A stretch of 64,000 nt of DNA from Bythopirellula sp. (GCA_965216565.1 OZ244170.1:3328001-3392000); one strand, 5' to 3'; shown: positions 27,913-55,804, counted from the first letter of the stretch. Translations and numbers: made by a program. Notes: generated by a model from the letters alone, not told the origin.

Positions 27913-27955
27913 CCGCTCATGTTGGTGAAGCCCTCAGCCTAGCCTCACGCAATGG

Positions 27956-31700: not shown

Positions 31701-31993
31701 ACAACGCAATCTTATATCGAGGGAAAACGGAGCCAAAAATTCACATCGGGTGCCGCAAAGATGAGACCGACTGGTTGTTCTCATTTGAAGACAACGGCGT
31801 AGGAATCGAGGAGAGACACTACGAACGGATCTTCATCATATTCCAACGCTTAGGATTCAAACCCGAGGTGAGAGGAAACGGACTTGGCCTCGCACTCACA
31901 AAAAGGATTGTGGAACGTCATGGCGGACGCATCTGGGTAGAATCGGTACCCGAAGAGAAAACTACATTCTACTTCACAATTCCAGCAATTTAG
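28745..31993 (+). CDS. CheB methylesterase - CheR methyltransferase - coiled coil - PAS - histidine kinase fusion
   Basis: [19 protein letters not shown] (CheB); [21 protein letters not shown] (CheR); ELQSTNEEL heptads; [22 protein letters not shown]. Confidence 0.92.
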
Positions 31994-32074
31994 TTTGACA
32001 CGTTCGTCTAATCACAATCATTGATAATATGAATCTACTCTTCTAAAGTTTGAAATGTTACGGAGCTCCTCGAT

Positions 32075-36070: not shown

Positions 36071-36122
36071 CTTTCCGAATTCTATTTGACAGGCTATTCT
36101 TCAGACGTCTTACCGGCTCAAG

Positions 36123-37427: not shown

Positions 37428-37445
37428 TCTCTGCAATCTCAAGCT

Positions 37446-39290: not shown

Positions 39291-39296
39291 CGATTT

Positions 39297-39731
39297 ATGA
39301 ACCCTGGTACTCTCACAGTCTTAGTCGTGGACGATGACGTTGTTGACGTAGAAATCGTTGAGCGTGGGACAAGACAACGCAATTTGCCCTGCGAAATGAG
39401 GTCTATGCCAGATGGCCGGCATGCGCTGGAATTCTTGCGAAGTGACTCGTTGACGGAGGATCAGCGAGAACGATTAGCGATTGTTCTCGACATAAATATG
39501 CCAGGCATGAATGGCCATCAATTTCTAGAAGAGTTACGCAAAGACCCTCAGCTGCGTCGTACTCTCGTGTTTGTCCTATCCACATCAGACCACGTACGCG
39601 ACAAATCAAAGGCCTACGACATGAACGTTGCGGGTTACTTTACCAAGCCAAACATTGACTCGCTAATCGATACATTGGAACTCTATGCTCAGCACGCTGA
39701 GTTCCCTCCTTGGCCAGGCGGACTAAACTAG
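39297..39731 (+). CDS. Single-domain response regulator, Rcp1-like
   Basis: VLVVDDD, VLDINMPGMNG, VFVLSTSD..RD..KAY..NVAGYFTKP. Confidence 0.9.
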   Translation: MNPGTLTVLVVDDDVVDVEIVERGTRQRNLPCEMRSMPDGRHALEFLRSDSLTEDQRERLAIVLDINMPGMNGHQFLEELRKDPQLRRTLVFVLSTSDHVRDKSKAYDMNVAGYFTKPNIDSLIDTLELYAQHAEFPPWPGGLN

Positions 39732-39732
39732 C

Positions 39733-39783
39733 AAAAAAACGAGGCGGCAGCAGGAGAACCAATGGCTCCCCCACTACCGCCTC
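39733..39783 (-). terminator. Rho-independent terminator downstream of the second CsrA-receiver gene
   Basis: On the minus strand, a long hairpin GAGGCGGTAG...CTGCCGCCTC followed by GTTTTTTT. Confidence 0.7.
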
Positions 39784-39866
39784 TTAGACCGAGTTGCTTC
39801 CATGCGGTACGCGGCTTCCGTGCCTTCCAGCGATTTACGAATAAATCCTGGCCCACCTGAACCCAG

Positions 39867-40667
39867 TCAAGCTCCGATCATCTCTCCCCTGCAACGCGCA
39901 CTGTCTCCAGGCACGTTAGCGTCGAAGGCAAGACGAAATACCAAGGCCTCGGGGTCGAGCGGTTTTGGAAACCAGCCATCGACACCTTCCGGCCCTACTT
40001 CCACGCCGTAGTCGGTGGGATCACCACCACTAACGGCAAATACTTTTAACGTTCGCAAACGGTTGTTCGCTCTCATCCGACGGATGGCTGTTGCACCATC
40101 CATCTTGGGCATTTGCATATCGAGCAGCACAATATCGGGCGTGCGATTGACGTCCAAGTAATCGAGCGCTTCCTGGCCGTTGCTGGCGAGATCGACGTCA
40201 TAACGCTTCGTTCTCAAATAACTGGCCAACAGTCGCGATTCGTTGGCGTTATCATCGACCAGAAGTGCGCGGGGCGATTTGCAATCTTCCCTCGGGGCTG
40301 AGGGGTTTTGCGACTTGCCAGAGGGACCGGCAGCAATTTGATTGTCAATTCCTTTCAGGTGATGGAATATCTCTAGCATCAAATGCTCTGTCTTGGCATC
40401 CTGCGTAGCATTAGATAATTCTTGCAGCTCTTGAAGTGCTTGCGTAGCGTTCTTCAAATGTAGATTCCGCTGGGCGTCTGAACTCGGATGCGAGATAGAG
40501 AAAGGCTCATTCTCTTCTCCTGCCAGTTCGTGACGTAGTACGCGAACATCACGAGGAGCATCTATGCCGACGCGTACCTTGTTGCCGTCAACACGCAAGA
40601 TCTGCACACTGATTCCTAAGCTCGGGAAGAGAATTTTATCGTCTTCCCGACGAGACAAGACCAACAT
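39867..40667 (-). CDS. CsrA-domain / receiver fusion protein
   Basis: MLVLSRREDDKILFPSLGISVQILRVDGNKVRVGIDAPRDVRVLRHE aligns with CsrA; receiver ALLVDDN..VLLDMQMP..FPKP. Confidence 0.87.
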   Translation of the reverse strand: MLVLSRREDDKILFPSLGISVQILRVDGNKVRVGIDAPRDVRVLRHELAGEENEPFSISHPSSDAQRNLHLKNATQALQELQELSNATQDAKTEHLMLEIFHHLKGIDNQIAAGPSGKSQNPSAPREDCKSPRALLVDDNANESRLLASYLRTKRYDVDLASNGQEALDYLDVNRTPDIVLLDMQMPKMDGATAIRRMRANNRLRTLKVFAVSGGDPTDYGVEVGPEGVDGWFPKPLDPEALVFRLAFDANVPGDSARCRGEMIGA

Positions 40668-42038: not shown

Positions 42039-44675
42039 ATGGTGCGAAATAGGTTGGGAAAACACAGAAATCCTGTGGTGTTGTTCGGCTCAGTGCTGCT
42101 ACTGAGCGCCGTGGTAGGCGTTTGGCACGCGGAACAGGTCGAGCAGGAGCGCCTTGCGCGGATTTCGGCTTCTAGTTCGTCTTCTGCCCTGTCCATCAAT
42201 GAAGCTGGACAGAACTTCGAGCAAGATATCGAAGAAGAGGCCTATCTGGTCGAAATGCAAAAAGCCCTGGCTCAGGCCGGTTGTCCAGGGTGGATGACGC
42301 TAGCCAGCGAAGGCGAAGCGGCGCTGCACCCTCCAGAATCTGGCGGCGACATCCAGCAAGTCGCGCATGCCCAACCGGTGACAGCAAGTGAACTCACTGA
42401 GAGAACGGTTCCGCGTGTTTCTTATCCCGTCCCGGTAAGAGTTGCCAGCAGGCCGCGGATCTCGGTAGCCTTGCGCGAAGCTCATCCCGTGGCAGGATCG
42501 CCAGAAGATCCCGATGACTTGCTCGATGGCCAACCTGACCTGCTGAGCACCCCTGCAGGAGATCATGCAGAAGAATCAGAACCGCAGGCACCACCGCAAC
42601 CGCCAGCGGAAAGTGCTAGCACGAACGAGAACGTTCCCGAGCAGCCGCAGTCAGCGCCCGCCAATCAGCCAGCACCAAGAGTGCAACCTCCCACCACACC
42701 AGCTCCGCCTGCCGTGGAAGTGCCTCCTTCGGCTACGCAAACTCCCACGATCACCGGGCCCGATCTTAGTTTGCCGTCTGTAGAAATGCCTACGAGTGAA
42801 CAGCCCGTCAATGTCCCGCTTGATTTGACTCCCCCGGCTAAAGAACCCGCGGAGCCGGTCCAGCCCAAGCCCGTCTTCAGCTCCCCGCCAGCTGCCAAAC
42901 AGACAAGCCCCAGTGTCCCGAGACAGGAAACCATCGAGGCGCCTGCGCCGTCTCCATTTTCGCCTCCACCCCGTCCCGCGGCCCCCCACTCGGTTTCTGC
43001 CCCGGCCAAGAAAGACAAGGCAACTTCGCATTGCGAATTCGTGGCACAGAACTGCTTTCCCACTGCCGAGGCATGTTCGAAGTGCCACGAGAAAATCTAT
43101 GACGAATGGCGCGGGTCGAGCCATGCCTACGCGGCCATCTCGCCAATGTTTCATAAATTCGAGCAGAAAATCAACGATCTCTCGCAGGGAACGATCGGCT
43201 ACTTCTGCTATCGCTGTCACATGCCCGTGGGCACCACGATGGGCGTCTCACGCGACGCACCGCTATGGGATTTGCCTCAGGTAGCTCGCGAAGGTGTCAC
43301 CTGTGTGGCCTGCCATCGAGTGAATCAGCGCTATAGCAAGGTCAACGGCGAACGTCGCATCGAGCCAGGCAACATCCACGCACCCGTTTATGGTTCCATC
43401 GGCGGTGGCGGCGTTGCCGAAGTGTTGGCACACAAGAATGAATTCAAGGTGAAGACGCATCCCAACGAGCCTGGCCCGGGACAAGACATTCACGTTGCCG
43501 GCTATTACTTCGATCAATTGCACAAGGCGGAGTTCTGTGTTTCGTGTCACCAGGTGGCCGTGCATCCAGGCATCAAGCTGGAGGTTGTGTGGGAGCAATA
43601 CCGCGCTTCGCCCGCTTGCAAGAAAGGCATCTCCTGTCAGGACTGCCACATGGGTCGGCTCCCGGGCGTGCCTAGCGGTTACGAGTATGATTCAGCCGCC
43701 GTAGTGAATGGCAAGAGTGTTAACAAACATCGCAAGCATGCCAATCACATGTTCTACGGACCGGGCTATTCGATTGCCCATCCCGGCATCTTCCCGCACA
43801 ACCCTAAAGCAAAACGCTGGTCGATGCGCGAGTGGCTGCTGTTCGATTACCGCAATGGCTGGGGAACAGAAGAATTTGAAGAACGAGTTGCCAACGGACA
43901 AATCCGCTTGAATTTCCCGCCAGTGTGGGCAGAAGCCGACGACCGCTACGATGCTCGCGAGATCGTCGAGGACAACCAAACGAAGCTATCCGAAAAGGCG
44001 TTGATGCGTCAGCAGCTGATGGAAAACGGATCGCATGTGGATGGACCCTTCTTCGATGGACCCCAAGCGCGCGGTCGCGATTTGGAATTTCACTACATCG
44101 TTACCAACACGAACGAAGGTCATAATCTGCCGAGTGGTTCCTTAGGTGCTCAGCCTCAACTTTGGGCCAACGTGGCCCTTATCGGTCCGCGAGGGAACCG
44201 ACTGTGGGAATCGGGATACACCGACCGGTGGGGGGATGTCGCGGACATCCACTCTGAGGACGTGCGTCATAAAAGAATTCCCTACGACTGGCAACTATTC
44301 AATCTACAAACGATGTTCCTCATTACCGGTGCCAAAGGTACCGACCGTGAGTTCCCCTTACCGGTGAATGTTGACTTCGATCAGCTCCCCTACCTGCGTC
44401 CCGGGGCCCAGCCAATTTCGGTATTGAACCATCCACCGTTTATTCGCATGGAAGGGCGCTCGCTGCCGCCGCTCGGCTCGCGGCAGGTGCCGTACAAAGT
44501 CCCCGGCCACTTGATGCAAGAGCCCGGTTGCTACCGGTTGTCGTTCCGAATGCGAAGCCGAGCCGAACCGATCTACTTCATGCGTTTTTGCGACGCGACC
44601 AAGGAAATGCAACGCGCCATGAATGAATGGATGGTCGACTTTCACCAATCGTCGGTGCAATTCATCGTTAAATAA
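42039..44675 (+). CDS. Pentaheme c-type cytochrome (c554/c552-like core) with long Pro-rich N-terminal linker
   Basis: CSKCH, CYRCH, CVACH, CVSCH, CQDCH; N-terminal hydrophobic signal/anchor; GHNLPSG motif; AAGGA SD supports start 42039. Confidence 0.88.
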   Translation: MVRNRLGKHRNPVVLFGSVLLLSAVVGVWHAEQVEQERLARISASSSSSALSINEAGQNFEQDIEEEAYLVEMQKALAQAGCPGWMTLASEGEAALHPPESGGDIQQVAHAQPVTASELTERTVPRVSYPVPVRVASRPRISVALREAHPVAGSPEDPDDLLDGQPDLLSTPAGDHAEESEPQAPPQPPAESASTNENVPEQPQSAPANQPAPRVQPPTTPAPPAVEVPPSATQTPTITGPDLSLPSVEMPTSEQPVNVPLDLTPPAKEPAEPVQPKPVFSSPPAAKQTSPSVPRQETIEAPAPSPFSPPPRPAAPHSVSAPAKKDKATSHCEFVAQNCFPTAEACSKCHEKIYDEWRGSSHAYAAISPMFHKFEQKINDLSQGTIGYFCYRCHMPVGTTMGVSRDAPLWDLPQVAREGVTCVACHRVNQRYSKVNGERRIEPGNIHAPVYGSIGGGGVAEVLAHKNEFKVKTHPNEPGPGQDIHVAGYYFDQLHKAEFCVSCHQVAVHPGIKLEVVWEQYRASPACKKGISCQDCHMGRLPGVPSGYEYDSAAVVNGKSVNKHRKHANHMFYGPGYSIAHPGIFPHNPKAKRWSMREWLLFDYRNGWGTEEFEERVANGQIRLNFPPVWAEADDRYDAREIVEDNQTKLSEKALMRQQLMENGSHVDGPFFDGPQARGRDLEFHYIVTNTNEGHNLPSGSLGAQPQLWANVALIGPRGNRLWESGYTDRWGDVADIHSEDVRHKRIPYDWQLFNLQTMFLITGAKGTDREFPLPVNVDFDQLPYLRPGAQPISVLNHPPFIRMEGRSLPPLGSRQVPYKVPGHLMQEPGCYRLSFRMRSRAEPIYFMRFCDATKEMQRAMNEWMVDFHQSSVQFIVK

Positions 44676-44707
44676 GAACCATTGAATTAGCGACAAGCTC
44701 CCCAGAC

Positions 44708-46591
44708 ATGCCATCGCAATCCCATAGCTTCGAAGCAGCAATACTCAGGCGACTGATTTTGTCGACCCTGATCTTGCTGTCGATGTGTGGGCTAGCAAAG
44801 GCCGAGGCCTCAGGGCAACCTCTCTTTGAAGAGCCGGCAGCTCGCCTGGCTCAACGTTGCGGGCCCTACTCGAATTGTTGGCCGCGAGTTGAGGGACGCG
44901 ATTGCAAAACTTCGCTGCTGCCATCGACCACAACAGGCCCGTTGGAATCGCCCCTATTCGGACCGCCGCAGGTAACGCGTCCGCTAATCGGTCCGCCTCT
45001 ATTGCGACTTCCTCCCGTCCATGGCTGCCCACCCGATAAATGCCCGCCTCCATCTGCGCCGGGCTATATGGCCAGCCCGTTCCGGTTCGGGATCGCTTCG
45101 CCCGTTCCACCAGCAGTGGTTTCGGCGCACGCTCCGCCTTGGGAACAACTGCCCACGCAAGCGGAGCTCAAGGGCAAGGTGATGCGTGCCACGCCGCATC
45201 GTGCCGATTGTCGTAGTTCGCATGGGCAATATAGTAGCGGCGACTTCACGCCCGATCCCTTCTACAATGGCAATTGGGAAGTCTGTCAGGAGTTGGGCAT
45301 CTATGGCAACAAACGTCTCAATCCCGTCCAACGCCCGGCCATCGAATGGGGCTTGCCCTTCTATTTGAATGGCCCCATCCCGCGTTCCGAAACATGGCTT
45401 GGGAAAACCAACCTGGTGCAACCCAAGTTCTATGTCTACGGCGACTACCGGTCGGCGATGGCATACAACGACTTCAACGGCAATGACCAATCTATTTGGG
45501 CGAACCGTTTGAATTTGGATATCGATCTATGGATTACTTCTACAGAGCGATTCCATATGTTCTGGGGACCGCTCGACGAACGGCTCGAATTCACTAGCCT
45601 CGTCTACGACAATGGTGAGGTAAACAGAAACGATGCCTGGGATGGCTGGGACCAGCGTACCGATACGATGTTTTTCGAGGGCGATCTGGGCTACATCCTC
45701 GGCGGACTACAAGGCATCGAAGCCCCCTTCGACCTGCCGTTTGCCGTCGGCTTGATTCCGCTGGTTTATCAAAATGGTATTTGGATCGAAGACGCATTCG
45801 TCGGCGCGGCCATGACGATTCCCGCCAGAAACAACCCGACGCTAGATTGGTCCAACTTTGATACCACTGTGTTTGTTGGCTTTGACGAAGTCACAAACAA
45901 TCAAGCTTTTAACAATGACAACCGTGCCGCCAATATCGTAGGCGTCACGACGCAAATCGAACGTCGGGGCGGGTATTTCGAATTTGGCTACGCCTTTCTC
46001 GATGATGACGAGCAGCTAGGCCGCAGTTTCCATAGCATCGGTGCGTCCTACACCAGACGCTATTTGAATCTCCTTTCCAATTCAGTCCGCACCCTAGTGA
46101 ACACGGGCCAGGACGGGCCGCGCGATTTGCGGCCTGCAGATGGCGTGTTGGTGCTCGTCGAAAATAGCTTCCTCACTCGCAATCCTTACAACGTAATCCC
46201 CTATGCCAACTTCTTTGCCGGCTTCGGTACGCCCCGGTCAGCCGCTCGCCTGCAGGGGCCTCTGAAGAACACCGGCATCAATTTCGAGTCCGACTTGCTC
46301 ACCGGCTACCCTCTGTTGGACGACACAGGGAACAACACCTACGGCGGTGCGATCGGCGTCGATCTCCTGGGCTGGGATTTCGAGCAGCAGTTGATTCTGG
46401 AGTTTGCCTTCTTGCAAGCATTCGACGACGCCGCGAGCCGCGCTGCTCCGGGAGATCAGTATGCCGCCGGTATCCGCTACCAAAAGCCGCTGAGTCACAC
46501 GCTAATTTTCCGCGCCGACGCGATGCATGGCTGGCTGGAAAACGCCGAGGACATCAGCGGTGCCCGCATGGAACTGAGGCGGAAGTTCTAG
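44708..46591 (+). CDS. Putative outer-membrane beta-barrel protein
   Basis: Signal peptide; alternating amphipathic strands (FYVYGDYR, LNLDIDLW, YFEFGYAFL, LILEFAFL, IRYQKPL); C-terminal ARMELRRKF ends in Phe. Confidence 0.7.
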   Translation: MPSQSHSFEAAILRRLILSTLILLSMCGLAKAEASGQPLFEEPAARLAQRCGPYSNCWPRVEGRDCKTSLLPSTTTGPLESPLFGPPQVTRPLIGPPLLRLPPVHGCPPDKCPPPSAPGYMASPFRFGIASPVPPAVVSAHAPPWEQLPTQAELKGKVMRATPHRADCRSSHGQYSSGDFTPDPFYNGNWEVCQELGIYGNKRLNPVQRPAIEWGLPFYLNGPIPRSETWLGKTNLVQPKFYVYGDYRSAMAYNDFNGNDQSIWANRLNLDIDLWITSTERFHMFWGPLDERLEFTSLVYDNGEVNRNDAWDGWDQRTDTMFFEGDLGYILGGLQGIEAPFDLPFAVGLIPLVYQNGIWIEDAFVGAAMTIPARNNPTLDWSNFDTTVFVGFDEVTNNQAFNNDNRAANIVGVTTQIERRGGYFEFGYAFLDDDEQLGRSFHSIGASYTRRYLNLLSNSVRTLVNTGQDGPRDLRPADGVLVLVENSFLTRNPYNVIPYANFFAGFGTPRSAARLQGPLKNTGINFESDLLTGYPLLDDTGNNTYGGAIGVDLLGWDFEQQLILEFAFLQAFDDAASRAAPGDQYAAGIRYQKPLSHTLIFRADAMHGWLENAEDISGARMELRRKF

Positions 46592-46621
46592 GGTGCACAG
46601 AGTCCACTGCGCGTGTCGTTG

Positions 46622-46918
46622 CTATTGAGATCCCAGATTGAACGGCTTGTCCCGAGCACCATGCACAACGGCAAGGATTTCCGATCTTTGTGATTCGACA
46701 CGGTAAATGATTCGATAAGAACCTTCAATTACTTGCCGTATGTTTGTGTCTTTGAACTCGGGTACGAGTTGGCCCAATTCCGGTGCCGTCGAAATCTGTT
46801 TCGTACGTGCGGTAATACGATCGACCATGCGTAAAGCATATCGTTCCGAATCACCAGCAATGTACTCGTAAATGTCTGTCAGGTGCGAGATAGCGGTAGC
46901 CGTCCATACCACTTTCAT
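46622..46918 (-). CDS. Type II toxin, RelE/ParE family
   Basis: MKVVWTATA..HL..IYEYIA.DS...A...P..G..VPE....IR......YRIIYR.....ILAVVHGARD. Confidence 0.88.
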   Translation of the reverse strand: MKVVWTATAISHLTDIYEYIAGDSERYALRMVDRITARTKQISTAPELGQLVPEFKDTNIRQVIEGSYRIIYRVESQRSEILAVVHGARDKPFNLGSQ

Positions 46919-47112
46919 AGCTTCAGACCAAACTGTAATCGCAATTGTTCAACATCCACGACGCGATCCTCTGCGGCGTCCTGCATGCCTGATTCAACGC
47001 ACTGTCGCACGTAAATTCGATACATGAGATCGTCCCAAGTCGCATCCTCAGGCAGCTCTTTGATTATTTCAAAAGCATCGGATCTGATGTTTGGCGAGTT
47101 GGCACTAGCCAT
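46915..47112 (-). CDS. Putative antitoxin
   Basis: 65 aa acidic protein (LPEDATWDDLMYRIYVRQ.VE.G) overlapping the toxin start by ATGA. Confidence 0.8.
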   Translation of the reverse strand: MASANSPNIRSDAFEIIKELPEDATWDDLMYRIYVRQCVESGMQDAAEDRVVDVEQLRLQFGLKL

Positions 47113-47442
47113 GACTGATTCCTCGAAAAGCCTAGAAAACCGTAGCCGTTAACCCGATTCATTCTACATAACATAGTGCTCCAGGGCGATTATGTTCCTA
47201 CATTCAACGGTTTGCGGTCTTTTGCTTGCACGGGGCTCAAAACCGGCTATCTTGGTAGGTAGAGTTCCATCGGTGAAGTAGCAAAAAATCTGGCAACGCT
47301 AATACAAATAGAATCAACAGTCGAAGGCGTTTGGACATTTCCCGCATAGCGGGGACAGTCCTAACGCCTTTTTCTATTGGCTCGCGAAAATCCTGGCCGG
47401 CGCGTAAGCAACGCGACTCATTTCTTGCCCAGGAACCACTAC

Positions 47443-47514
47443 ATTTACATTGGCAACACTATTTACATTGGCAACACTATTTACATTGGCAACACTACTT
47501 ACATTGGCAGCACT
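47443..47514 (+). repeat. Tandem repeat, 4 x 18 bp (ATTTACATTGGCAACACT)
   Basis: Three exact copies at 47443, 47461 and 47479, and one copy with 2 mismatches at 47497; abuts the GAGGAG SD. Confidence 0.95.
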
Positions 47515-47531
47515 GAGGAGAAGAGATTCCT

Positions 47532-48134
47532 ATGATTCGAAAGCGTATTAGTCTGCACTTGGTAATCGCATCACTTGTTATCGCACCCGGCGCATCGGCA
47601 CTCGCTCAAACTATTTGGACAGGTCCAGATGTCGTGGTCGACCAGCCGGCCGGCGCGCCTCTCTCGGTCGTCGACGTCCTGATCCCGGGCGTAGCTTCGC
47701 TAACTCGCAATAGCACGGGATTATTGTGCAATACCTTGAATGGTGATACCTGTGCGTCATTTCAGGCGATCCCCTCTGATTTTGAGTTTGCGTTCTCCAA
47801 TCTCAATGGCAACGGTCCGATTGTGTATGGCTCGGCAGCGAACTTTGCGAATTTTACGTTTTCTAACATGGATAGTGCCTTCCCGAACCGGGTGGGCAAC
47901 GATCTGCCGAATCCGCAAAATGGCTTGCCCCCGGTGGCTGGAATTGGGCATCACCTCTCCAGCGATACCTACTTCGACATCGAGTTCTCGAATTGGGGCC
48001 AAGGTCCCCGTGGCAACAATCAGCCCGGTGCCTTCACCTACCGACGTTCTTCCGCCGTGCCGGAGCCGACTTCCATCGCACTTTGCACGCTACTTGGCAC
48101 CTGCGTCTTAGCGAGTGTCCGACAACGAAACTAG
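47532..48134 (+). CDS. Small PEP-CTERM protein
   Basis: Signal peptide; C-terminal VPEPTSIALCTLLG...RQR. Confidence 0.85.
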   Translation: MIRKRISLHLVIASLVIAPGASALAQTIWTGPDVVVDQPAGAPLSVVDVLIPGVASLTRNSTGLLCNTLNGDTCASFQAIPSDFEFAFSNLNGNGPIVYGSAANFANFTFSNMDSAFPNRVGNDLPNPQNGLPPVAGIGHHLSSDTYFDIEFSNWGQGPRGNNQPGAFTYRRSSAVPEPTSIALCTLLGTCVLASVRQRN

Positions 48135-48153
48135 AAGCAGTTTCAGAATCAAT

Positions 48154-48250
48154 GAGCCGAACGCGCTAGTTGAAAATCCGCCATGGCGGGCGTCGGGTGG
48201 CATCAGAACAACACCTAGACTTACGCTACCCGCGGCTAGCGCCGTCGGCT
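48154..48250. repeat. REP-like imperfect inverted repeat
   Basis: GAGCCGAACGCGCTAG...CGTCGGGT versus ACCCGCGGCTAGCGCCGTCGGCT; the left arm is interrupted by a segment containing the palindrome CCGCCATGGCGG. Confidence 0.55.
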
Positions 48251-48311
48251 TACATAGAACTATTTTCGGTTCTTGAAACTGGTTCTAGTACTCCAGCACA
48301 GGATGAGCTTG

Positions 48312-48386
48312 AAAAGGGGACAGGCACGACGACCCGACGTTTGCTCAAACGCAGGTCGTTATCGTGCGTCGAGCCAGTCCCCTTTC
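48312..48386. repeat. REP-like hairpin element
   Basis: AAAGGGGACAGGC...GCCAGTCCCCTTT outer arms, with an inner ACGACC..CGTTTG/CAAACG..GGTCGT stem. Confidence 0.65.
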
Positions 48387-48413
48387 TACGACTCCCGGAC
48401 CTGCGCAGTAGTA

Positions 48414-50444
48414 TTAATGTCCCCCCACATGATAGCGATGGCAGGTAAGGCAACTGTCGCCGGCCGCTTGTTGCGTGTGGCACTCCGCGCAGCTTGCACG
48501 GGTGATAGGCTCAAAGCCGTAGACTGCCTTGTGCGGAGAGTCGCCCTCATAGTTCGACTTGGTGATTGCCGTTGTGCTGATCGCATGACAAGCCTGGCAA
48601 TCGGCAAGGCTGGCTTGTGATAAATGGGGGCTGTGATTGAACACGGTGAAGTCGCGTCCACGATCGGTCGACTGTTTCGCCAGCCAATTGATTTCGAACT
48701 CACCGCTCTCTAGCCGATCGAGACTATGACAACTACCGCACTGCCCTGCCGCGGTCGGCACAAGCTGTTGTCGCAAGAGGGGCTCGGCAATCGCTGCGTG
48801 CGTGCCTTCAGCAGCTTCAGCCAACACATCGAGCCACGCAGTCAGAAACGGATCGGCGTGGCCCGTGGGTTGGTAGCGGATCGAAAGCGTCAAGTCGTCG
48901 CGGAACCAACCCCCGGCCGCTACCTTTTGTCGTGCTGCCGCCCGATCTTGGGCGCCTGCCGCAGAACTGTTCGCTGGCGTTGACTGCCGAGGTGGCATTT
49001 TCCGACGCGCCGCGATTTCGGCCGGCAAATCATTCAGCCATTGCGAACTGAGAGCGGCAACGTTCTCTGGCGCCAATCGCGCCGCAAGCCGCGAGAGTTC
49101 CGCCCCGCTGAGATCTCTCCCCAAAAGGGCTTGCAACCGTTCTTCAATCGCTTGCTGGCCGTGCGTTTCCAGATCGTAATATAGCTCCTTGGCTGCCCAG
49201 ACAATCTCAGCGGCAGCCGCTAGTAGCACTTCGTCGTCGGGATCGATGTCGAAAAAGTCGAAATCAACGCCCACTTGTTTCATCGCCGCGGCTGCCTTCG
49301 GATCGCTGGCGATCAGCAGCTTGGTGATTGGAGGCAGTGCTCCGTCGAACTCGTCGCCGGCCTCCGCGGGCCACTGCCCAATCCCATGGCCACTGTCGGC
49401 CAAAGTTTCCGTCTCGAGCATCGGCAATGTAAAGATCGGAACACCTGCCACCCAACTGTTCGCCAAGTCTTCGTCATGGCACTTCGCACACGATGCTTCG
49501 TAAGGCAAAGTTTGCTGGAATGCACCGGTCTCGTCGGTCGTGTGACACAGCGCGCAATCAAAATCTTGTTTCGATTCCACAAAGTGTTTCGCCTGATGCG
49601 AGCTATGATCGAACACAATGCGGGTTCGCCGTTGAGCGGGCCAGGCGGTAAACTCCGGATGATCGGTCGCAAAGCTCTCGTATTGCTCGGCATGACAAGA
49701 TTGGCAGGCCGAGTCGCTCATCCAGCTCAAATTGTGCTCGGCTCCGTGATGTTCGCGATGACACGTGCTGCACGCCAATGGCTCGGTGGGGTCGACATCG
49801 CGGTGAGTCGCAGGCATGACTGTCTCGGATTGGCCACTTGTTAGTAATACCTGCGGTTCGATATTGTGAGCCCACAGCTCGGTCCCCTGCTCGATTTGCT
49901 TGCGGTGGCACTCCATGCAGAGTTCCGACTGGGTGGGCTGCGCCAATTCAGGATGGGTCGCATGGCCGATCCATTCTCCAACCGTCTGATTGCCGGCCGC
50001 ATGACAAGTGGCACAGCGATCGGTCGCGTGCCCCTCGGCCAACAGTTGGGCATGGTGGGTGGTCAGTTCCCCCGGTGCCAGGAACTCGTTCCGCCAGTCG
50101 GCACTCAGAATGACAATCAGTGCCCCCAGCGAAAACAGCAAACACCCCCAAACAAACCGCCGACGCTGCAGACGCAGCGACATCAACGGCTGGCATTGGT
50201 AAATGTGCGAACAATGGCCCTCGGGCGAGGGACCATCGTCGCAAGGACCTCCTCGACCGGGCGAGCGGTTGCACTTCCAGCGCTCCCCTTCCAGCACGGG
50301 GTGGCAAGCCGCCGCTTGCGGACATCGACCCAGCCGCGACGGACCAACCGGGCACGACCCGTGCTCGTCGTCGAGCGCGCACATCCATGCCTGGTTCGGT
50401 CGTTCGTAGGAATCGCCCTGGAAGTCTTGTAATTTGTCTCTCAC
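48414..50444 (-). CDS. Membrane-anchored decaheme c-type cytochrome with Cys-rich N-terminal domain
   Basis: Ten CxxCH motifs (CATCH, CMECH, CSTCH, CQSCH, CALCH, CAKCH, CGSCH, CQACH, CAECH, CLTCH); one TM after RLQRRR; GTG start overlaps the upstream stop (GTGA). Confidence 0.9.
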   Translation of the reverse strand: MRDKLQDFQGDSYERPNQAWMCALDDEHGSCPVGPSRLGRCPQAAACHPVLEGERWKCNRSPGRGGPCDDGPSPEGHCSHIYQCQPLMSLRLQRRRFVWGCLLFSLGALIVILSADWRNEFLAPGELTTHHAQLLAEGHATDRCATCHAAGNQTVGEWIGHATHPELAQPTQSELCMECHRKQIEQGTELWAHNIEPQVLLTSGQSETVMPATHRDVDPTEPLACSTCHREHHGAEHNLSWMSDSACQSCHAEQYESFATDHPEFTAWPAQRRTRIVFDHSSHQAKHFVESKQDFDCALCHTTDETGAFQQTLPYEASCAKCHDEDLANSWVAGVPIFTLPMLETETLADSGHGIGQWPAEAGDEFDGALPPITKLLIASDPKAAAAMKQVGVDFDFFDIDPDDEVLLAAAAEIVWAAKELYYDLETHGQQAIEERLQALLGRDLSGAELSRLAARLAPENVAALSSQWLNDLPAEIAARRKMPPRQSTPANSSAAGAQDRAAARQKVAAGGWFRDDLTLSIRYQPTGHADPFLTAWLDVLAEAAEGTHAAIAEPLLRQQLVPTAAGQCGSCHSLDRLESGEFEINWLAKQSTDRGRDFTVFNHSPHLSQASLADCQACHAISTTAITKSNYEGDSPHKAVYGFEPITRASCAECHTQQAAGDSCLTCHRYHVGGH

Positions 50445-51265
50445 AGCACTCCCCCATCGAACAGGTGGGCGAGCACTCCGTGCAATGCCGCGAGTAACAA
50501 GAGTGGATAGGTAAGACCGATGTGCAAGAACAACCACATCTTCAACCGCCACTGCAAAGCGGAGTGAAAGTCGAGATCGTCGCGGCGGCGAATCAACGCG
50601 AACAACTGCTCGCAATACTGCTGTTCGGCGCTGGAAAGGTAACGACCGATTGAAGTGAGGCCTGCCAAATGAGACCGGCGCAATTCGCTGTTAGGCTTCA
50701 GATAGTATCCGAGCCGACGTGGCCGCTCGAAGTATGACTGCAAGTTCTCTGCGTAGTATTCGCCCAAGGTGGTCGCGCCTGAGGAGCGTACCGCCGCCAG
50801 CGCGACTTGCTGGGCCCGCTCCTGCAACTGGCTCCGCAGCATGGGGATGCGCTCGTAAATCACTTCCTCAGCAACGTTGGCCAGCTTGGGTGGCAACGTC
50901 CTGGTCCAATAGAGCCCTAGCAACCCACTGGCAAAGGTTAGCCCATAGAGCACGGCGAGAATCGTCTCCAAACTTCCATTGGGTAACCGCCAGGAAATAT
51001 GCATTCCAAAGACAGCCGCAGATGCCAGGCCGACATAAATATGTGTTTGCAACCAGGCGGCCGAGGACCCCCACGATGCCACCGGGATTTTTTTGCGCAG
51101 ATTATAAGCCGCCAAGAATAGCAGAGCGGCGAGGAGCAGATAGCCTGTCTGGAAATCGGTGCGTGCCAGCCGATAGTCCTGCCAGCGACACCAAATCGCA
51201 ACCGCTGCCACCGCGGCAATCGCAATGGCTGAATTTCGTAGTCTCCGACTGACGAATGATCTCAT
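50441..51265 (-). CDS. Integral membrane protein, His-rich (ferric-reductase/cytochrome b-like)
   Basis: About 5 TM segments; His pairs WLQTHIYVG...GMH and WLFLHIGL...ALH; YNLRKK loop. Confidence 0.75.
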   Translation of the reverse strand: MRSFVSRRLRNSAIAIAAVAAVAIWCRWQDYRLARTDFQTGYLLLAALLFLAAYNLRKKIPVASWGSSAAWLQTHIYVGLASAAVFGMHISWRLPNGSLETILAVLYGLTFASGLLGLYWTRTLPPKLANVAEEVIYERIPMLRSQLQERAQQVALAAVRSSGATTLGEYYAENLQSYFERPRRLGYYLKPNSELRRSHLAGLTSIGRYLSSAEQQYCEQLFALIRRRDDLDFHSALQWRLKMWLFLHIGLTYPLLLLAALHGVLAHLFDGGVL

Positions 51266-51313
51266 ACCGATACAAGTGGACTTAGCTAATGGTTCATGTT
51301 GAACGACGACAAA

Positions 51314-51501
51314 TAAGCCCGGAGGGCTGACACAACCTTAGCCGGTGCCGTCAGGCACGGGACTCATGGATGAATTAATGGTTAGGCCTGAAAGGCCGAC
51401 ACAGCGATTTTGTGTCGGCCCTTCAGGCCTAGCGTTTCCACGCCTAATACGCACCGGTGGCTCACGCCACCGGCTAAGGTTGTTATAACCCTCCGGGCTT
51501 A
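51314..51501. mobile_element. MITE/REPIN-like palindromic element; transposase-less copy of the element at 63.2-63.9 kb
   Basis: Terminal IR TAAGCCCGGAGGG-N5-ACAACCTTAGCCGGTG; central hairpin TAGGCCTGAAAGGCCGACACA/TGTGTCGGCCCTTCAGGCCTA; both halves resemble the tnpA flanks. Confidence 0.8.
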
Positions 51502-51644
51502 GTGAAAACTGTTTGCTGACTACTCTCAAGTACCGGTAGGCGTTGGGGAATAATCATTTTCAAGACTCAAACTTGAATACTCGTCAACACAACCTAGCGT
51601 CTAGCAGTCTGCATGCGAAGTGCTGGGGGCGAACTGGCGGATTT

Positions 51645-53393
51645 CTACCGACTCACCCACTGGGAAAGTTCCCCCAGGTTACCCAAGTCCAAACGCACCA
51701 GTGCATCGTGGGGACAAGCATTCTGGCATGCAGGCCCCGCAGCGTGATCGGCGCACAGGTCGCATTTAGTTGCCTTGAGAATCGGCTGGCGAGAGGTTTC
51801 ATCGATTAGGATCGCACCCTGCCGGTCTCGGATCTCGACCATCCGAATGTTATCGTACGGACAACTATCCGCGCAGGTGCTACAGCCAATGCACGTCAGG
51901 TCGTTAATGCGGACGGTGCCATCGCCCGTGTCGCGGGCAATTGCCCCGGTCGGGCAACCGATCATACAGACGGGATCGACGCAATGCATGCAGGCATGGG
52001 TCACCATATACTGATTGTGTTGCATTCCGTGCCGTAGGAAACGCGGATTGTTGTCGTGCGTCGCAGCACACGCCCGCACACAATCGTCGCAGCGCGTGCA
52101 GCGATCTAAATCGATCACCATCGCCTCGCGACCGTTCATGAATCGCTTCTCGACGAGAAACTCAAGCAGCGCCGAGTCGACCTGCGGTTGCGGCACGTCG
52201 CTCGAGACTGAGGAATCAATCTCTGTTGTCTGCGGACAATAAAGCGTGTGCTTCTCGACCAAATCGTCTAGTACACTGGCCGAGATATGAGGCATGACAT
52301 GTTTGACGATCGTCTTTTGAGGGATCCGCAACACATCGACATAGCCAAGGGCCCGCAGAGAATTCGACAGTGGCACGGGCTGGCCCTCGCGAATCGAGCG
52401 AATCGTTTCCGCCAAGCCATGAACTTGCCCTTTTCCAAGATAGGCGATCGTTCGATGGCCATGGCCATGGCGATGGCTGAGCCGGGCGAAACCTGCGCGA
52501 ATGAGCGTTAGGCCATCGTTGGGCAGACCTTCCTCGACAATTAATGGCTCGTTCACAATGGCGTCAGCAGCAGGCGATTTGGTCGACGCATCAAACGCCG
52601 CCTGCCATTCAAAATTGCCATGCGTTTCGAACACCGTTGCCTCGGCCACCGCGCTCAGTTCCACTTCCGGCAATGAACCAAACAGCGGTGTTTCGCGCAA
52701 ATGAACCCGCAAGCTGCTTTCGCGGTAGAGACGCTCGATGTGGTTCCGCAGCGCCTCGGTACGGCGCATCAAATCTCTCAGTCCTTGCCAACGAATTTCC
52801 AAGAGCTGCGCGTCGCCATCGGCGAGCACCGTAGCCGCTCGGGGCATCCGCGTCATGGCAGCCAGCTCACCGAAGATTTCGCCCGCGTGCAAGCTCAGCG
52901 TGTGCGACCCGTACAACAATCGCGGCACATCCTGCAAGAAGATTCTCGGGTGCGTCGAATGGTCCGATGTAAATGTATCGGGTTGACCTGTGGCGCCCTG
53001 CGCCGACCATTGGCTGCGAACCTCCGGCAACTTGGGATTCTTCCAAAGCCGCATCATTGAACTGAGCAGACCCGGCTTTGGTTTTTCCGGACGCCCCAGC
53101 AGCAGGTCGTCTAGTCCATCCAGAACGACCTTCACACGCCCAGAGAGCACCAAGAACGCGCTATTTCCATAGTCGCCTTCTCGCACCACGATCGAACCAT
53201 CAGGAAAGTCGACCACCCGCGTGTCGTTACGCAAAATTCCTTCCAAAGGGACCGCCGCAGGAAATTCTTCGGGGTCCATACTCTCGAAAGGCTCGAACTT
53301 GAGCAATCGCTCCACGTCGGCATCGGTCATCGACTGGCCGAAGGGCGCATCCCAGCGCTGAGGTCGTGTGATGGCAATTTCGAGAGGCGCCAT
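51645..53393 (-). CDS. Cyclic-nucleotide-binding (2 domains) / 4x[4Fe-4S] (DmsB/NrfC-like) fusion protein
   Basis: VREGDYGNSAFLVLSGRV...FGELAAMTRMPRAATV; CTRCDDCVRAC, CMHCVDPVCMIGCP, CIGCSTCADSCP, KCDLC...PACQNACP. Confidence 0.9.
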   Translation of the reverse strand: MAPLEIAITRPQRWDAPFGQSMTDADVERLLKFEPFESMDPEEFPAAVPLEGILRNDTRVVDFPDGSIVVREGDYGNSAFLVLSGRVKVVLDGLDDLLLGRPEKPKPGLLSSMMRLWKNPKLPEVRSQWSAQGATGQPDTFTSDHSTHPRIFLQDVPRLLYGSHTLSLHAGEIFGELAAMTRMPRAATVLADGDAQLLEIRWQGLRDLMRRTEALRNHIERLYRESSLRVHLRETPLFGSLPEVELSAVAEATVFETHGNFEWQAAFDASTKSPAADAIVNEPLIVEEGLPNDGLTLIRAGFARLSHRHGHGHRTIAYLGKGQVHGLAETIRSIREGQPVPLSNSLRALGYVDVLRIPQKTIVKHVMPHISASVLDDLVEKHTLYCPQTTEIDSSVSSDVPQPQVDSALLEFLVEKRFMNGREAMVIDLDRCTRCDDCVRACAATHDNNPRFLRHGMQHNQYMVTHACMHCVDPVCMIGCPTGAIARDTGDGTVRINDLTCIGCSTCADSCPYDNIRMVEIRDRQGAILIDETSRQPILKATKCDLCADHAAGPACQNACPHDALVRLDLGNLGELSQWVSR

Positions 53394-53408
53394 ATCTGAA
53401 GACTCTTT

Positions 53409-54425
53409 CTATTTGTAATCCTGCGGCGAAGGAAGGTAACTGTCGATCACAGCCAAGTCTTTCCCATTGGCCGTCTCGGCAAACTCACTTGCCGCGGCAC
53501 CAATCTCGTCGGCTGCGTTGACGAGTGCTTCGCTCTGCCCCAGCTTCAATGGCACCGAAAGCGCAGCGTCCACCGCATGGCTGAGATGCTCGTTCGGTAT
53601 CTGCTGAGAGATCTCATAGAGCTTGTGTTTCAACCTGGCAGCACGTTGAGCGGATGCGATGCCGTACACGTCTTTTGAGGTCGCCAACGCGGTGGCTCGA
53701 AAACTCGCTTCCAAGTCTGCCAGCATCCCCACCACATACATCACGCGGAGTCTTTCTATCGACGAGGGCACGTTGCTATTGTTGCCCGAGCGCAAAAAGT
53801 TGTGCCGCACCATTCCCTGCGACCAGGCGACCAATTCGAAATCTCCACTGCCGGTCGGATGGCCGCCGACGTTCACCAGTTGTTCGTCGGGAGCGGAATG
53901 ACAAGTCAGACATTGCCGCGCTATCAAATACAGATTGCTAGGATTATTCATGCCCGCTTCGATGCTGGCTTCAATTCTTTGCTGAGCATGCTCTGCCGAT
54001 TCCTGCGCCTTGGTCGCACTGGGCCCTCCGTAATCGTTGTGTAGTGGCACCCAATCCATTCCGGCACCATGGCACGACTCGCAGGAAATCCCCGAGACAA
54101 CCCTGACCCGCTCACCCTTCTGCTGCTGTGTGTAATGACACTTCACGCACACGTCGTTTCGCTTGACGCTGGAAAGATCGAGCCGCTTGGCGATTTCCTT
54201 CGCTTTTGGATTTCGATGCAGAGTTTCGAATGTCGCAAAGTGCGGAGTTTGCTGCCACTGCTGCACTTCCGACTCGTGGCACTTCGCGCACGATTCGGCT
54301 CCCAGGACCTTTGCGGGATCGCAGTCGATTTCCACACTATATTTACTCTCGGCACGAACGCTGCTCCCTGCGCACAGTGCCCAGCACGCGAGGAGAATAG
54401 CGATCGTTGTTTTACGCACTTTCAT
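53409..54425 (-). CDS. Periplasmic tetraheme cytochrome c, c554-like
   Basis: Signal peptide; CAKCH, CVKCH, GISCESCHGAG, CLTCH. Confidence 0.88.
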   Translation of the reverse strand: MKVRKTTIAILLACWALCAGSSVRAESKYSVEIDCDPAKVLGAESCAKCHESEVQQWQQTPHFATFETLHRNPKAKEIAKRLDLSSVKRNDVCVKCHYTQQQKGERVRVVSGISCESCHGAGMDWVPLHNDYGGPSATKAQESAEHAQQRIEASIEAGMNNPSNLYLIARQCLTCHSAPDEQLVNVGGHPTGSGDFELVAWSQGMVRHNFLRSGNNSNVPSSIERLRVMYVVGMLADLEASFRATALATSKDVYGIASAQRAARLKHKLYEISQQIPNEHLSHAVDAALSVPLKLGQSEALVNAADEIGAAASEFAETANGKDLAVIDSYLPSPQDYK

Positions 54426-54486
54426 AACCTATTCCGTATTGGCATTTTGTTTCGCATCGAGGAAAAATATCTTCCATGTTTTTCCT

Positions 54487-54522
54487 CCCCTCACCTAACC
54501 TCTCCCCAAAGGGGCGAGGGAC
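54487..54522. repeat. Short REP-like palindrome
   Basis: CCCCTCACCTAACCTCTCCCC-AAA-GGGGCGAGGGAC. Confidence 0.55.
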
Positions 54523-54550
54523 TGTAGGAGTAGATATTTTTCCTTGATGC

Positions 54551-55804
54551 TCACGCCTCTAACACCAAGTCTTCTTCCGGCACGGCGATACAAGCCAAAC
54601 ATTCCTTTTCGCTCACCGTGATCCCAGGTTGTTTTATATGAGCAAACTTTCCAGACCGCACCGCCGTTACGCACTGCCCACAGTTCCCGGCTCGGCACCC
54701 GGACTCCAGCCGCACCCCGTTAGACTCCGCGAAATCGAGAAGTGTCGAATCACTTTCTGTCCACACGGCCGCTTTATTTGTCTTCGCAAAGTTGATATTC
54801 CGTGGACCGGTGTTGCGATTCTTGCGATAGCGTTTCACACTCGCTGGACCAAAGGCCTCGAAATATATGTGATCGTCCGGCACACCCCAATCGAGTAACG
54901 CTGGCACCAGGGCTTCCATCATCGCCGGTGGACCACAGATGTAGAAGCGAAAGTTGTTCGACGGTAACACCTCGCGCAGACGCTGCAAATCGATATAGCC
55001 TCGTTGGTCGAAATCGCGTCCATTTCGGTCCCCCGGCATGGGTCGCGAATAGCTCACGTCGAGCTTGATATTGTCGTGCCGACTACATAGGTCGCGCATC
55101 GGCTCAGCAAAGGGATGCTCACGGCTATTGCGAAACCCAGTGAATACATACACCTGTCGTTCGTTGCGGTCGTGCACGATCGAGTTGATCATGCTCATCA
55201 CCGGCGTCACGCCAATTCCGCCCCCAATCAGAACAACAGGCACCTCGTCCCGCGGATCGAGAAAGAAGGCTCCCTGCGGGGCTCGGACGTCGAGTTGCGA
55301 ACCGACCTCCACTTGTTGGTGAAAGTACGTGCTCCCCTGCCCCGGCGGCAATGTCGGATTGTCGGTGGGTGGCTGAGCATGCTTGATCGTTATGCGATAG
55401 TAGTCTTCACGTGGCCGATCGGAGAGGGAGTAACAACGCACCAGCGCCGCTTGTTCGGTGGCAACCGGTAATTCGAACGTCAGATATTGGCCTGGCTCGA
55501 AACGCGCCAAGGGTCGTCCGTCTTCGGGCAGTAGATAATACGACTTACAGTCAATGGCTTCGTCTACGATCGCTGCCACCTGCATGGGCCTGGTTCCTGT
55601 CCAGGCCTTAAGCATCGGCTTGACGGCCCGCGCCCAATTCAACACGGCCCGTAGTTGCTGATCGAATAGTAGTCGCTGATTTCGATAGCGAATTTGCGTC
55701 TGGCCATTTCGCCGACGGGCGCGCCACACCGCCCACAGCAACTGCATTCCAGCTACTCCTAACAGCGCGGTCCCTGCGATTGTGCCCATCGAATGCCAGT
55801 CCAC
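54551..55804 (-). CDS. Membrane-anchored FAD/NAD(P)H oxidoreductase with C-terminal 2Fe-2S ferredoxin (FNR/PDR family)
   Basis: FEPGQYL, RCYSLS, GGGIGVTP, YICGP, FEAF; CRAGNCGQC...CLAC; N-terminal TM. Start uncertain; GTG 55804 follows AAGGA. Confidence 0.9.
   Translation of the reverse strand: MDWHSMGTIAGTALLGVAGMQLLWAVWRARRRNGQTQIRYRNQRLLFDQQLRAVLNWARAVKPMLKAWTGTRPMQVAAIVDEAIDCKSYYLLPEDGRPLARFEPGQYLTFELPVATEQAALVRCYSLSDRPREDYYRITIKHAQPPTDNPTLPPGQGSTYFHQQVEVGSQLDVRAPQGAFFLDPRDEVPVVLIGGGIGVTPVMSMINSIVHDRNERQVYVFTGFRNSREHPFAEPMRDLCSRHDNIKLDVSYSRPMPGDRNGRDFDQRGYIDLQRLREVLPSNNFRFYICGPPAMMEALVPALLDWGVPDDHIYFEAFGPASVKRYRKNRNTGPRNINFAKTNKAAVWTESDSTLLDFAESNGVRLESGCRAGNCGQCVTAVRSGKFAHIKQPGITVSEKECLACIAVPEEDLVLEA

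Follow-up and report, generated by a model that had tools for sequence, protein, structure and literature searches.

Seven genes in two convergent arms

A 64,000-nt stretch of the genome of Bythopirellula sp. (GCA_965216565.1 OZ244170.1:3328001-3392000; here, the window) holds seven genes, ptdA to ptdG, that encode the parts of a putative electron-transfer chain across the cell envelope. The genes form two convergent arms, with ptdAB on the plus strand facing ptdGFEDC on the minus strand. The plus-strand arm comprises a pentaheme cytochrome c (PtdA, 42039..44675) and, starting 32 bases after it, a predicted outer-membrane beta-barrel (PtdB, 44708..46591). The minus-strand arm comprises a membrane-anchored FAD/NAD(P)H reductase with a C-terminal [2Fe-2S] domain (PtdC, 54551..55789), a putative periplasmic tetraheme cytochrome c (PtdD, 53409..54425), a putative cytoplasmic protein with two cyclic nucleotide monophosphate (cNMP)-type domains and a DmsB/NrfC-type 4x[4Fe-4S] domain (PtdE, 51645..53393), an inner-membrane protein (PtdF, 50441..51265), and a decaheme cytochrome c with one membrane helix (PtdG, 48414..50444).

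All seven open reading frames are intact, and CxxCH motifs number 5 in PtdA, 4 in PtdD, and 10 in PtdG, in agreement with a preliminary description of this DNA that had counted seven genes and 19 such motifs. No CxxCK motif occurs in any of the three cytochromes. The locus contains no molybdopterin or hydrogenase gene, as had also been stated. Upstream TTG codons at 41979 and 55822 are possible alternative starts of PtdA and PtdC, and the likely start of PtdG is the GTG at 50444, which overlaps the ptdF stop (GTGA overlap). Pfam matches were FAD_binding_6, NAD_binding_1, and Fer2 in PtdC, cNMP_binding and Fer4_11 in PtdE, and Cytochrome_C554/C7 in the cytochromes; the barrel and the membrane protein gave no Pfam or NCBIfam match. 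Every one of the seven genes is single-copy in the genome at high similarity. Among the 22,415 stop-to-stop frames of at least 80 amino acids (aa) in this 5.2-Mb genome, 27 have at least two CxxCH motifs and 13 have at least four. Three of those 13 belong to the ptd locus, the decaheme being the richest in the genome, and the density of CxxCH at the locus is far above chance.

A described and conserved cluster

This cluster is real and conserved, and it has been described before, as PCC4 in 2017 (He, Barco, Emerson, and Roden; PMC5566968) and as ptd in 2023-24 (Elbon, Stewart, and Glass; bioRxiv 10.1101/2023.11.21.568154). Judged by gene composition and motifs as described in those papers, the seven genes are almost certainly a copy of the PCC4 subgroup II/ptdABCDEFG cluster. 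According to the first paper, PCC4 combines a porin with three cytochromes of the periplasm (4, 5, and 10 hemes) and an inner-membrane protein of five transmembrane helices that carries SGXXG and two WX3HX13H motifs; subgroup II, for which Planctomycetes are listed, adds a pfam13247 gene (PMC5566968). The locus in the window has an outer-membrane beta-barrel gene adjoining a cytochrome gene, three cytochromes of 4, 5, and 10 hemes with export signals or anchors, a PtdF that holds SGxxG and both WX3HX13H motifs, a PF13247 gene (E 2.7e-9, over the cut-off) upstream of the membrane gene, and a FAD/NAD/Fer2 gene upstream of the tetraheme gene. A simple hydropathy scan of PtdF found four segments above threshold, versus the five helices given for PCC4. 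The same profiles recover two further loci, L099 (Hyphomicrobium sp.) and L100, and L099 has the exact layout of PCC4 subgroup I, which is described as lacking the Fe-S gene and, in Hyphomicrobium, as divergent in layout with its reductase domains reordered (PMC5566968).

Elbon et al. list seven products, name them ptdABCDEFG, and call their function completely unknown; all seven, A to G, are encoded in the window. As in that description, the window copy has a cNMP-FeS protein, a ferric-reductase-like membrane protein, and a pentaheme cytochrome with a beta-sandwich related to cytochrome c552 of Thermochromatium (T.) tepidum, and the phyla are the same. It differs from both accounts in its layout, which is not the single co-directional run ABCDEFG but AB facing GFEDC, two convergent arms with an insert. 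This convergent layout does not exclude ptd membership, because gene order varies in the family and gene directions differ among PCC4 copies (PMC5566968). The preliminary description had proposed a distinct system; the cluster turns out to have been described already, but neither PCC4 nor ptd has been biochemically characterized in the literature that we found. Both were predicted from genomes, and our literature search returned no bench test of their function. The cluster in PMC10732223 is a different one.

Scanning GTDB with PtdA gave 275 confirmed stretches, the best 80 of which, from Planctomycetota, Alphaproteobacteria, and Gammaproteobacteria, underlie the synteny counts. The compared genomes are kin; their co-occurrence counts are not independent and are given without a statistical test. 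The complete set of seven is found no farther than 10 kb from ptdA in 26 of the 80 loci; 13 of these converge as in the window, while 12 have the order DEFGABC and 1 ABCDEFG. The last order was seen in L006, L014-L017, and L098. ptdB follows ptdA in 66 of the 80 loci; 13 end within 1.5 kb, and the remaining locus has a broken ptdA and no ptdB, so that the two genes are linked in 66 of the 67 loci with room for both. Matches to PtdE occur in 52 of 251 genomes sampled from the phylum and matches to the PtdA profile in 30 of 251. When the DNA around strong PtdE matches was inspected in 17 of the 52 genomes, all seven genes were present in 10, five of them with ABCDEFG on one strand (four of the five from one family).

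The two arms also travel together in a set of relatives. ptdB and ptdF were both strong in 29 of 60 relatives, with ptdF only in 1, ptdB only in 0, and neither in 30 (cut-offs, E below 1e-150 and 1e-80, which drop weaker paralogues). The cluster is carried by 29 of 36 relatives within the family of the host, and the CDEFG arm is kept whole even when it lies 48 kb or 690 kb away from ptdAB. The closest named homologues are from Bythopirellula and other Lacipirellulaceae, and cultured carriers include Bythopirellula polymerisocia, Lacipirellula limnantheis, and Adhaeretor mobilis. An alphaproteobacterial metagenome-assembled genome (MAG) from the eastern tropical North Pacific (L046) has the full set, with a PtdA that is 58% identical. 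Taken together, the two arms belong to one unit: recurrent co-occurrence of all seven genes, and single-operon forms in some genomes, led us to reject chance juxtaposition, and the unity that had first been assumed from proximity is borne out. Further conserved neighbors of the cluster were for the most part shadow frames or lineage-specific genes, and a catalytic partner common to the loci was not among them.

Two kinds of variant locus were seen alongside these. In L101:6532-16992, ptdAB lies beside a divergent run of 17-heme, PtdF-like, cNMP-FeS, and 15-heme genes, so the input module appears to be interchangeable. In other planctomycetes (L111:8716-12500, L112, L113, and L114), a divergent PtdA-PtdB pair has no CDEFG nearby; this PtdA has six hemes and an extra N-terminal planctomycete cytochrome domain, and the barrel adjoins it.

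The arms converge, as the preliminary description had it, but they do not adjoin. About 1.8 kb intervenes, with an insertion (46622..48134) that is not part of the system and comprises a ParE/RelE toxin (46622-46918, minus strand; PF05016, E 3e-16), a probable antitoxin placed by position only (about 46918-47112, minus strand), and a PEP-CTERM protein (47532-48134, plus strand; weak PEP-CTERM matches, E 0.006-0.04). In many relatives the arms converge without any insert. A short tandem repeat of ~18 bp lies directly upstream of the PEP-CTERM gene (47408-47530) and gives repeated peptides in its reading frames, and the DNA between that gene and the end of ptdG (48135-48413) consists of dispersed intergenic repeats, with 74 blastn pieces genome-wide. 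The 379-bp gap between ptdE and ptdF (51266-51644) holds a long imperfect inverted repeat (72% over ~190 bp) that has one short match elsewhere in the window and is probably an inserted element.

Predicted properties of the seven proteins

PtdA, recognized from its five CxxCH motifs, hydropathy, and profile and fold matches, consists of an N-terminal hydrophobic segment (likely a signal peptide), a Pro/Glu-rich linker of ~300 aa, a five-heme domain, and a C-terminal immunoglobulin (Ig)-like domain. Its core is modeled as a 550-aa two-domain globule with a predicted local distance difference test (pLDDT) score of 85.7. The closest solved relative is T. tepidum c552 (PDB 5ZE8), whose own function is unknown. 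The PtdA profile matches it with E 6e-17, and the PtdA model matches it over its whole length (VIA Z 22.5, root mean square deviation [rmsd] 3.1, 352 aligned residues, 19% identity). MccSep, a periplasmic polysulfide reductase, has bis-His hemes 1, 3, 4, and 5 and an active site at heme 2, which is ligated by His/Cys239 and served by selenocysteine (Sec) 325 (bioRxiv 10.1101/2025.11.18.688581). PtdA resembles MccSep/ExtKL of Geobacter sulfurreducens in its periplasmic five-heme plus Ig-like architecture, its four conserved distal His residues, and its clustering with a porin and multihemes (PMC13510729). In contrast, it has neither the Cys that ligates the heme nor the Sec/Cys of the Ig loop, where Ser, Gly, Leu, and Phe occupy the corresponding columns, and its core is ~130 aa longer. 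Given these absences and a score of 19 bits against the 250-bit cut-off of NF040886, membership of PtdA in MccSep was rejected; PtdA works like the MccSep fold at most. MccSep (9WT8) was absent among the fold matches listed for PtdA and appeared, weakly, in sequence searches only.

The position of the missing Cys is occupied by Leu189-Glu190. Glu190 (core numbering; residue 515 from the ATG; 43581..43583, plus strand) was located by conservation and alignments and sits at or one residue off MccSep Cys239/Cys240, T. tepidum Cys241, and NrfA Gln263/His264. The last two have an active-site role; the Leu189-Glu190 stretch aligns with this Gln-His pair, and the PDB holds variant entries at both. 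Glu is found at this position in 66 of 71 sequences and, among 105 more distant stretches aligned from representatives of 50% clusters, in 98. A precedent for such a residue is cytochrome P460, in which a distal Glu is described as able to act as a catalytic base over a c-type heme. Four further non-motif His residues (His37, His160, His245, and His370, core numbering) are conserved and are assigned as distal ligands of bis-His hemes, three by alignment with MccSep or 5ZE8 His residues and His245 by position. A fifth, His256 (43779..43781, plus strand), is present in 71 of 71 and in 68 of 83 sequences, and it is a possible sixth ligand of heme 2 or a possible catalytic residue. PtdA itself may thus be a catalytic subunit, unless His256 fills the heme 2 site, and the earlier statement that the locus has no such subunit is doubtful, PtdA having the fold of an enzyme family. 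NrfA membership was rejected because all three cytochromes lack the CxxCK catalytic heme motif.

A relative of PtdA was seen on a Nitratiruptor plasmid (NZ_AP023062.1; L122:2592-9324), in an iron-uptake cluster with an OprD porin, a ferritin, an imelysin protein, and an FTR1 permease. It is 23% identical to PtdA (hhalign probability 99.8, E 3e-29) and has Gln at the Glu190 position. Among the papers listed in our literature search, none describes a pentaheme/iron-uptake cluster of this type.

PtdB has a signal peptide, a Pro-rich linker, and an invariant C-terminal Phe. The AlphaFold model of its 438-aa barrel domain (residues 190-627) has a pLDDT of 88.2, long loops, and, as read from its secondary structure, 18 strands if one loop hairpin is set aside; the barrel named in the preliminary description is therefore predicted to be one. 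The best structural match is OpdQ (VIA Z 26.5, rmsd 2.9, 322 aligned residues), and the matches include OprD/Occ, MOMP, OccAB, and AlgE at Z 23-26.5, with which Foldseek agrees. MtrB ranks 38th (Z 11.9, rmsd 9.2). PtdB is thus predicted to belong to the OprD/Occ-type class of 18-strand solute channels, although a shared fold shows no function. In an alignment of 65 homologues, 24 strand positions hold a charged residue at a frequency of 80% or higher, as would be expected for a selective lumen or binding surface. PDB sequence searches with the PtdB and PtdF profiles found nothing meaningful.

These models bear on the relationship to MtrCAB, MtoAB, and PioAB, which likewise pair an outer-membrane barrel gene with genes for multiheme cytochromes, one of them a decaheme. 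According to He et al., MtrB has 28 strands and MtoB/PioB 24-32 (PMC5566968), in contrast to the 18 inferred for PtdB, and a role of PtdB as the sheath of a large cytochrome is unlikely on this model. The window copy also lacks MtrC and CymA. Its decaheme is anchored in the inner membrane and gave no match to TIGR03508 (DmsE/MtrA) at E 0.05; weak 21-bit matches of PtdA and PtdD to this family compare with a cut-off of 192. MtrCAB membership was rejected on these grounds, the barrel being too small and a DmsE/MtrA decaheme lacking, and the unlikeness to MtrCAB/CymA noted earlier holds in both barrel class and decaheme family.

In the other arm, PtdC was assigned from Pfam, hydropathy, and conservation over 38 rows. 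Basic residues follow its N-terminal anchor, which suggests that the catalytic flavin part is cytoplasmic. PtdD has four CxxCH motifs and an N-terminal part resembling cytochrome c554 (E 5e-10 to 1BVB). Cytochrome c554 (CycA) has one five-coordinate heme; PtdD has four invariant non-motif His residues (His62, His129, His189, and His208) for its four hemes and scores 43.7 bits versus 400, and membership in this family was rejected. It is predicted to be an electron carrier. Since conserved non-motif His residues match the heme counts in both proteins (4+4 and 10+10), PtdD could be all-bis-His, and PtdG, which has ten such residues over 56 rows in addition to its 10 CxxCH motifs and a membrane helix found by hydropathy, is predicted to be an all-bis-His wire.

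PtdE, defined by Pfam and NCBIfam matches, has no hydrophobic segment. All 16 of its Fe-S Cys residues are invariant in a 51-row alignment, from which we infer four clusters, whereas Elbon et al. state two. Its first cNMP domain has an intact G-E...R phosphate-binding cassette, with G175, R182, and R185 in 51 of 51 rows and E176 in 50 of 51; the second domain is degenerate. The residue after the cassette Arg is Thr in 40, Ser in 7, and Ala in 2 of the 51, and it is Ala in the window copy. In two loci (L003 and L117), FHA domains are fused to PtdC and PtdE, a hint of phosphorylation control.

PtdF was called His-rich in the preliminary description, a label that does not fit, as 7 of its 274 residues are His; four of them (His75, His89, His248, and His262) are invariant in 47 of 47 rows. 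Both W-x3-H-x13-H motifs are likewise present in 47 of 47 and SGxxG in 39 of 47. Two H-x13-H pairs are the diheme signature of FRE/NOX proteins (PMC5566968), and PtdF is predicted to be a diheme b protein of the ferric-reductase/NOX transmembrane type. Its top cluster in the ESM Atlas is ferric-reductase-like (score 0.97) and is possibly its own. As in FRE/NOX and MsrQ systems, two H-x13-H pairs would hold two b hemes fed by an FNR-type flavoprotein; here, however, the reductase is separate, a cNMP-FeS relay is inserted, a multiheme chain is the acceptor, and PF01794 does not match PtdF. Short PtdF forms of 165-184 aa, found at L104:2017-2568 and L106:10393-10887 in ABDFG clusters without C and E, lack the cytoplasmic insert and the W-x3-H-x13-H motifs.

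PtdG has, before its membrane helix, a conserved domain of two 4-Cys repeats, here termed Cys8 (50193..50381, minus strand). All eight Cys residues are present in 46 of 56 rows and four or five of them in 7 of 56; an ESM Atlas search with this region gave no usable match. The domain is predicted to be cytoplasmic and metal binding. It is absent from all four examined loci that have ptdFG but no ptdE (L099, L100, L104, and L106); on these few cases, Cys8 is likely a docking or relay site for PtdE. The accessible portions of He et al. and Elbon et al. do not mention the Cys8 domain, and those of Elbon et al. do not mention the Glu/His pocket of PtdA.

Direction of electron flow and the role of PtdA

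We narrowly favor a model in which an outward NAD(P)H-to-periplasm chain, likely gated by cNMP, ends at PtdA, which would reduce a solute that PtdB lets in. The genes, motifs, synteny, and conservation behind this model are observed and the folds predicted, whereas cofactors, flow direction, gating, and catalysis are inferences. Electrons from NAD(P)H would enter FAD and [2Fe-2S] in PtdC and pass to the four [4Fe-4S] clusters of PtdE, where the first cNMP domain would gate their flow. They would then cross the inner membrane through the two b hemes of PtdF and reach the decaheme PtdG and tetraheme PtdD, serving as wires, and finally heme 2 of PtdA, the putative active site, with a Glu/His/Arg pocket replacing the Cys/Sec pair of MccSep. 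A small solute would enter through the narrow barrel PtdB and be reduced by periplasmic PtdA. Outward electron flow from NAD(P)H spends membrane potential and does not make it, which would cast the system as a switchable detoxifying or electron-dumping service and would explain a cNMP gate. The substrate is left as a list of candidates: if PtdA is an enzyme, our judgement puts nitrogen oxides (such as nitrite, nitric oxide, or hydroxylamine) first, still short of an even chance, then chelated iron or manganese, then sulfur or selenium species, with peroxide and any other substrate improbable to the same degree.

The outward direction is supported by the FNR-type reductase together with the FRE/NOX-like H-x13-H diheme motif, and MsrQ-like systems with NAD-binding domains are read as running the same way. 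Precedents for a porin with a PtdA-type fold are ExtI with ExtKL/MccSep in Geobacter and the OprD porin of the Nitratiruptor plasmid cluster. The Geobacter MccSep genes cluster with the porin gene, and when ExtI is lost, less selenite and tellurite is reduced, whereas the reduction of Fe(III)-citrate is not lowered (PMC5877670). Lacipirellula parvula, the family type, is described as capable of O2 respiration, fermentation, and limited anaerobic respiration, a physiology that fits detoxification or electron disposal better than metal respiration.

Several points weigh against this model. His256 could be the second His ligand of heme 2, in which case PtdA would only carry electrons, and both catalytic Cys and Sec of MccSep are absent. 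The alignment with MccSep is weak (E 1.5) and otherwise bridged via the 23%-identical relative, the register of Glu190 is uncertain by one residue, and four sequences in the 71-row alignment have His there. Binding of cNMP by PtdE is read from motifs, and PtdF may be quinone-reactive. ptdAB or ptdABD occurs without neighboring ptdC/ptdE in L104-L107, L109, L110, and L118, so the NAD(P)H link of the cluster is not universal. As for PtdB, OmbB is an electron-conducting barrel of near 20 strands. Cyc2 is another such barrel smaller than MtrB (PMC5566968).

In the preliminary description and in Elbon et al., the chain was related to outward extracellular electron transfer (EET), in which PtdA or the C-terminal PtdG hemes would extend into PtdB, or all the way across it, and reduce Fe(III), Mn(IV), humics, or partner cells. 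An unbroken chain of 19 hemes and 2 heme b from cytoplasm to outer membrane is what such a route would use, ptdA and ptdB are linked, Elbon et al. liken the products to porin-cytochrome complexes (bioRxiv 10.1101/2023.11.21.568154), and small pentahemes of the PtdA fold share their heme arrangement with an archaeal nanowire cytochrome. We nevertheless consider this unlikely: PtdB, modeled as an 18-strand solute channel with long loops, is remote from MtrB, the PtdA core is predicted to be a large two-domain globule, the cluster has no surface cytochrome, and it is near-core (29/36) in a family of aerobic or fermenting heterotrophs. Of the NAD(P)H-to-periplasm/surface wire first proposed, the periplasmic wire is the best reading, while surface reach is weakened by a barrel that models as a solute channel. 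He et al. instead model PCC4 as an EET conduit with inward flow to quinone, from Fe(II), Mn(II), or another donor oxidized at the barrel or PtdA, via PtdD and PtdG, to PtdF and the quinone pool; PCC4 is reported, with no extracellular cytochrome, in Fe(II)-oxidizing Zetaproteobacteria and in Hyphomicrobium, and PtdF resembles a quinone-active cytochrome b (PMC5566968). The loci that lack ptdC/ptdE are in keeping with that path, but the NAD(P)H reductase and Fe-S relay present on the cytoplasmic side in most complete clusters would be superfluous on a quinone-linked path, electrons passing from Fe(II) to NAD(P)+ would have to go uphill and work against the membrane potential, the closest solved relative of PtdA is a low-potential cytochrome, and the predicted folds suggest a solute channel with an enzyme-like pentaheme. 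Inward oxidation thus seems very unlikely.

Another reading is assimilatory metal uptake, with PtdB admitting chelated iron and PtdA, in the manner of FRE-type reductases, altering the redox state of that iron for a permease. The Nitratiruptor relative sits among iron-uptake genes, and NAD(P)H systems of the MsrQ type have been connected with the uptake of iron; however, the clusters have no conserved neighbor, neither an iron permease nor any other extra gene, a 21-heme machine would be costly under iron shortage, and a Fur box gave no match within 6 mismatches upstream of either arm (a weak test), so that we give this reading, too, little chance. In the same scan, CRP boxes gave no match, and FNR-like boxes gave 2-mismatch matches only, with no shuffle control, and were rejected as evidence. 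Least probable, in our view, is a redox sensor in which the chain reports periplasmic ligand state to the cytoplasm via the PtdE cNMP domains and carries no bulk current. Those domains, the FHA fusions, and six class III cyclase matches in the genome (none inside the window) are compatible with sensing, but domains of the cNMP and FHA types serve as inputs, neither the cluster nor its flanks have a conserved kinase, cyclase, or DNA-binding output, PCC4 subgroup I lacks PtdE, and ptdAB is highly transcribed in oxygen-deficient zone MAGs (bioRxiv 10.1101/2023.11.21.568154).

A bolder form of the favored outward model takes PtdA for a new class of multiheme enzyme, with Glu at the c552/MccSep/NrfA active-site position, His and Arg nearby, and an open heme 2, capping a dedicated anion channel and fed by a cNMP-switched cytoplasmic NAD(P)H chain. 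We hold this tentatively, as doubtful but worth stating.

Other redox and signaling genes were noted in passing. A second, smaller module (L123:1507-5158; G000:C1:503006-507478) has a PtdC-like reductase, a PtdF-like membrane protein extended by a C-terminal domain, and a cytochrome with seven hemes, and no cNMP-FeS gene or barrel was seen in it. Translations indicate a NapA-like nitrate reductase cluster with tetrahemes and an NrfAH-like pair (G000:C1:604000-614500 and 3114262-3116406). Within the window, a signaling block (24599-40667) comprises two large CheB/CheR-like proteins (by inspection), sensor kinases, receivers, two CsrA-like/receiver genes, and a solute-binding protein, with no link to the ptd cluster shown, and an open reading frame at 17449-18624 resembles, by inspection, a site-specific integrase.

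To the earlier descriptions, this analysis adds the barrel class, the Glu190/His256 question, the four-cluster count of PtdE, and the Cys8 domain of PtdG. The cluster is widespread in GTDB species genomes, with 275 confirmed PtdA stretches, is reported as highly transcribed in the oxygen-deficient zone, and has hitherto been taken to indicate that iron is oxidized or metals are reduced. If PtdA is a periplasmic enzyme under a solute pore, that metal reading of metagenomes would be wrong and a redox reaction would have been overlooked. Cultured carriers, and Glu190 and His256 as direct targets, make the question of function testable. Should the new-enzyme reading be true, it would mean second-messenger control of a trans-envelope electron circuit and an unrecognized reaction of nitrogen oxides or metals in planctomycetes that are abundant in the sea and in proteobacteria of oxygen-minimum zones.

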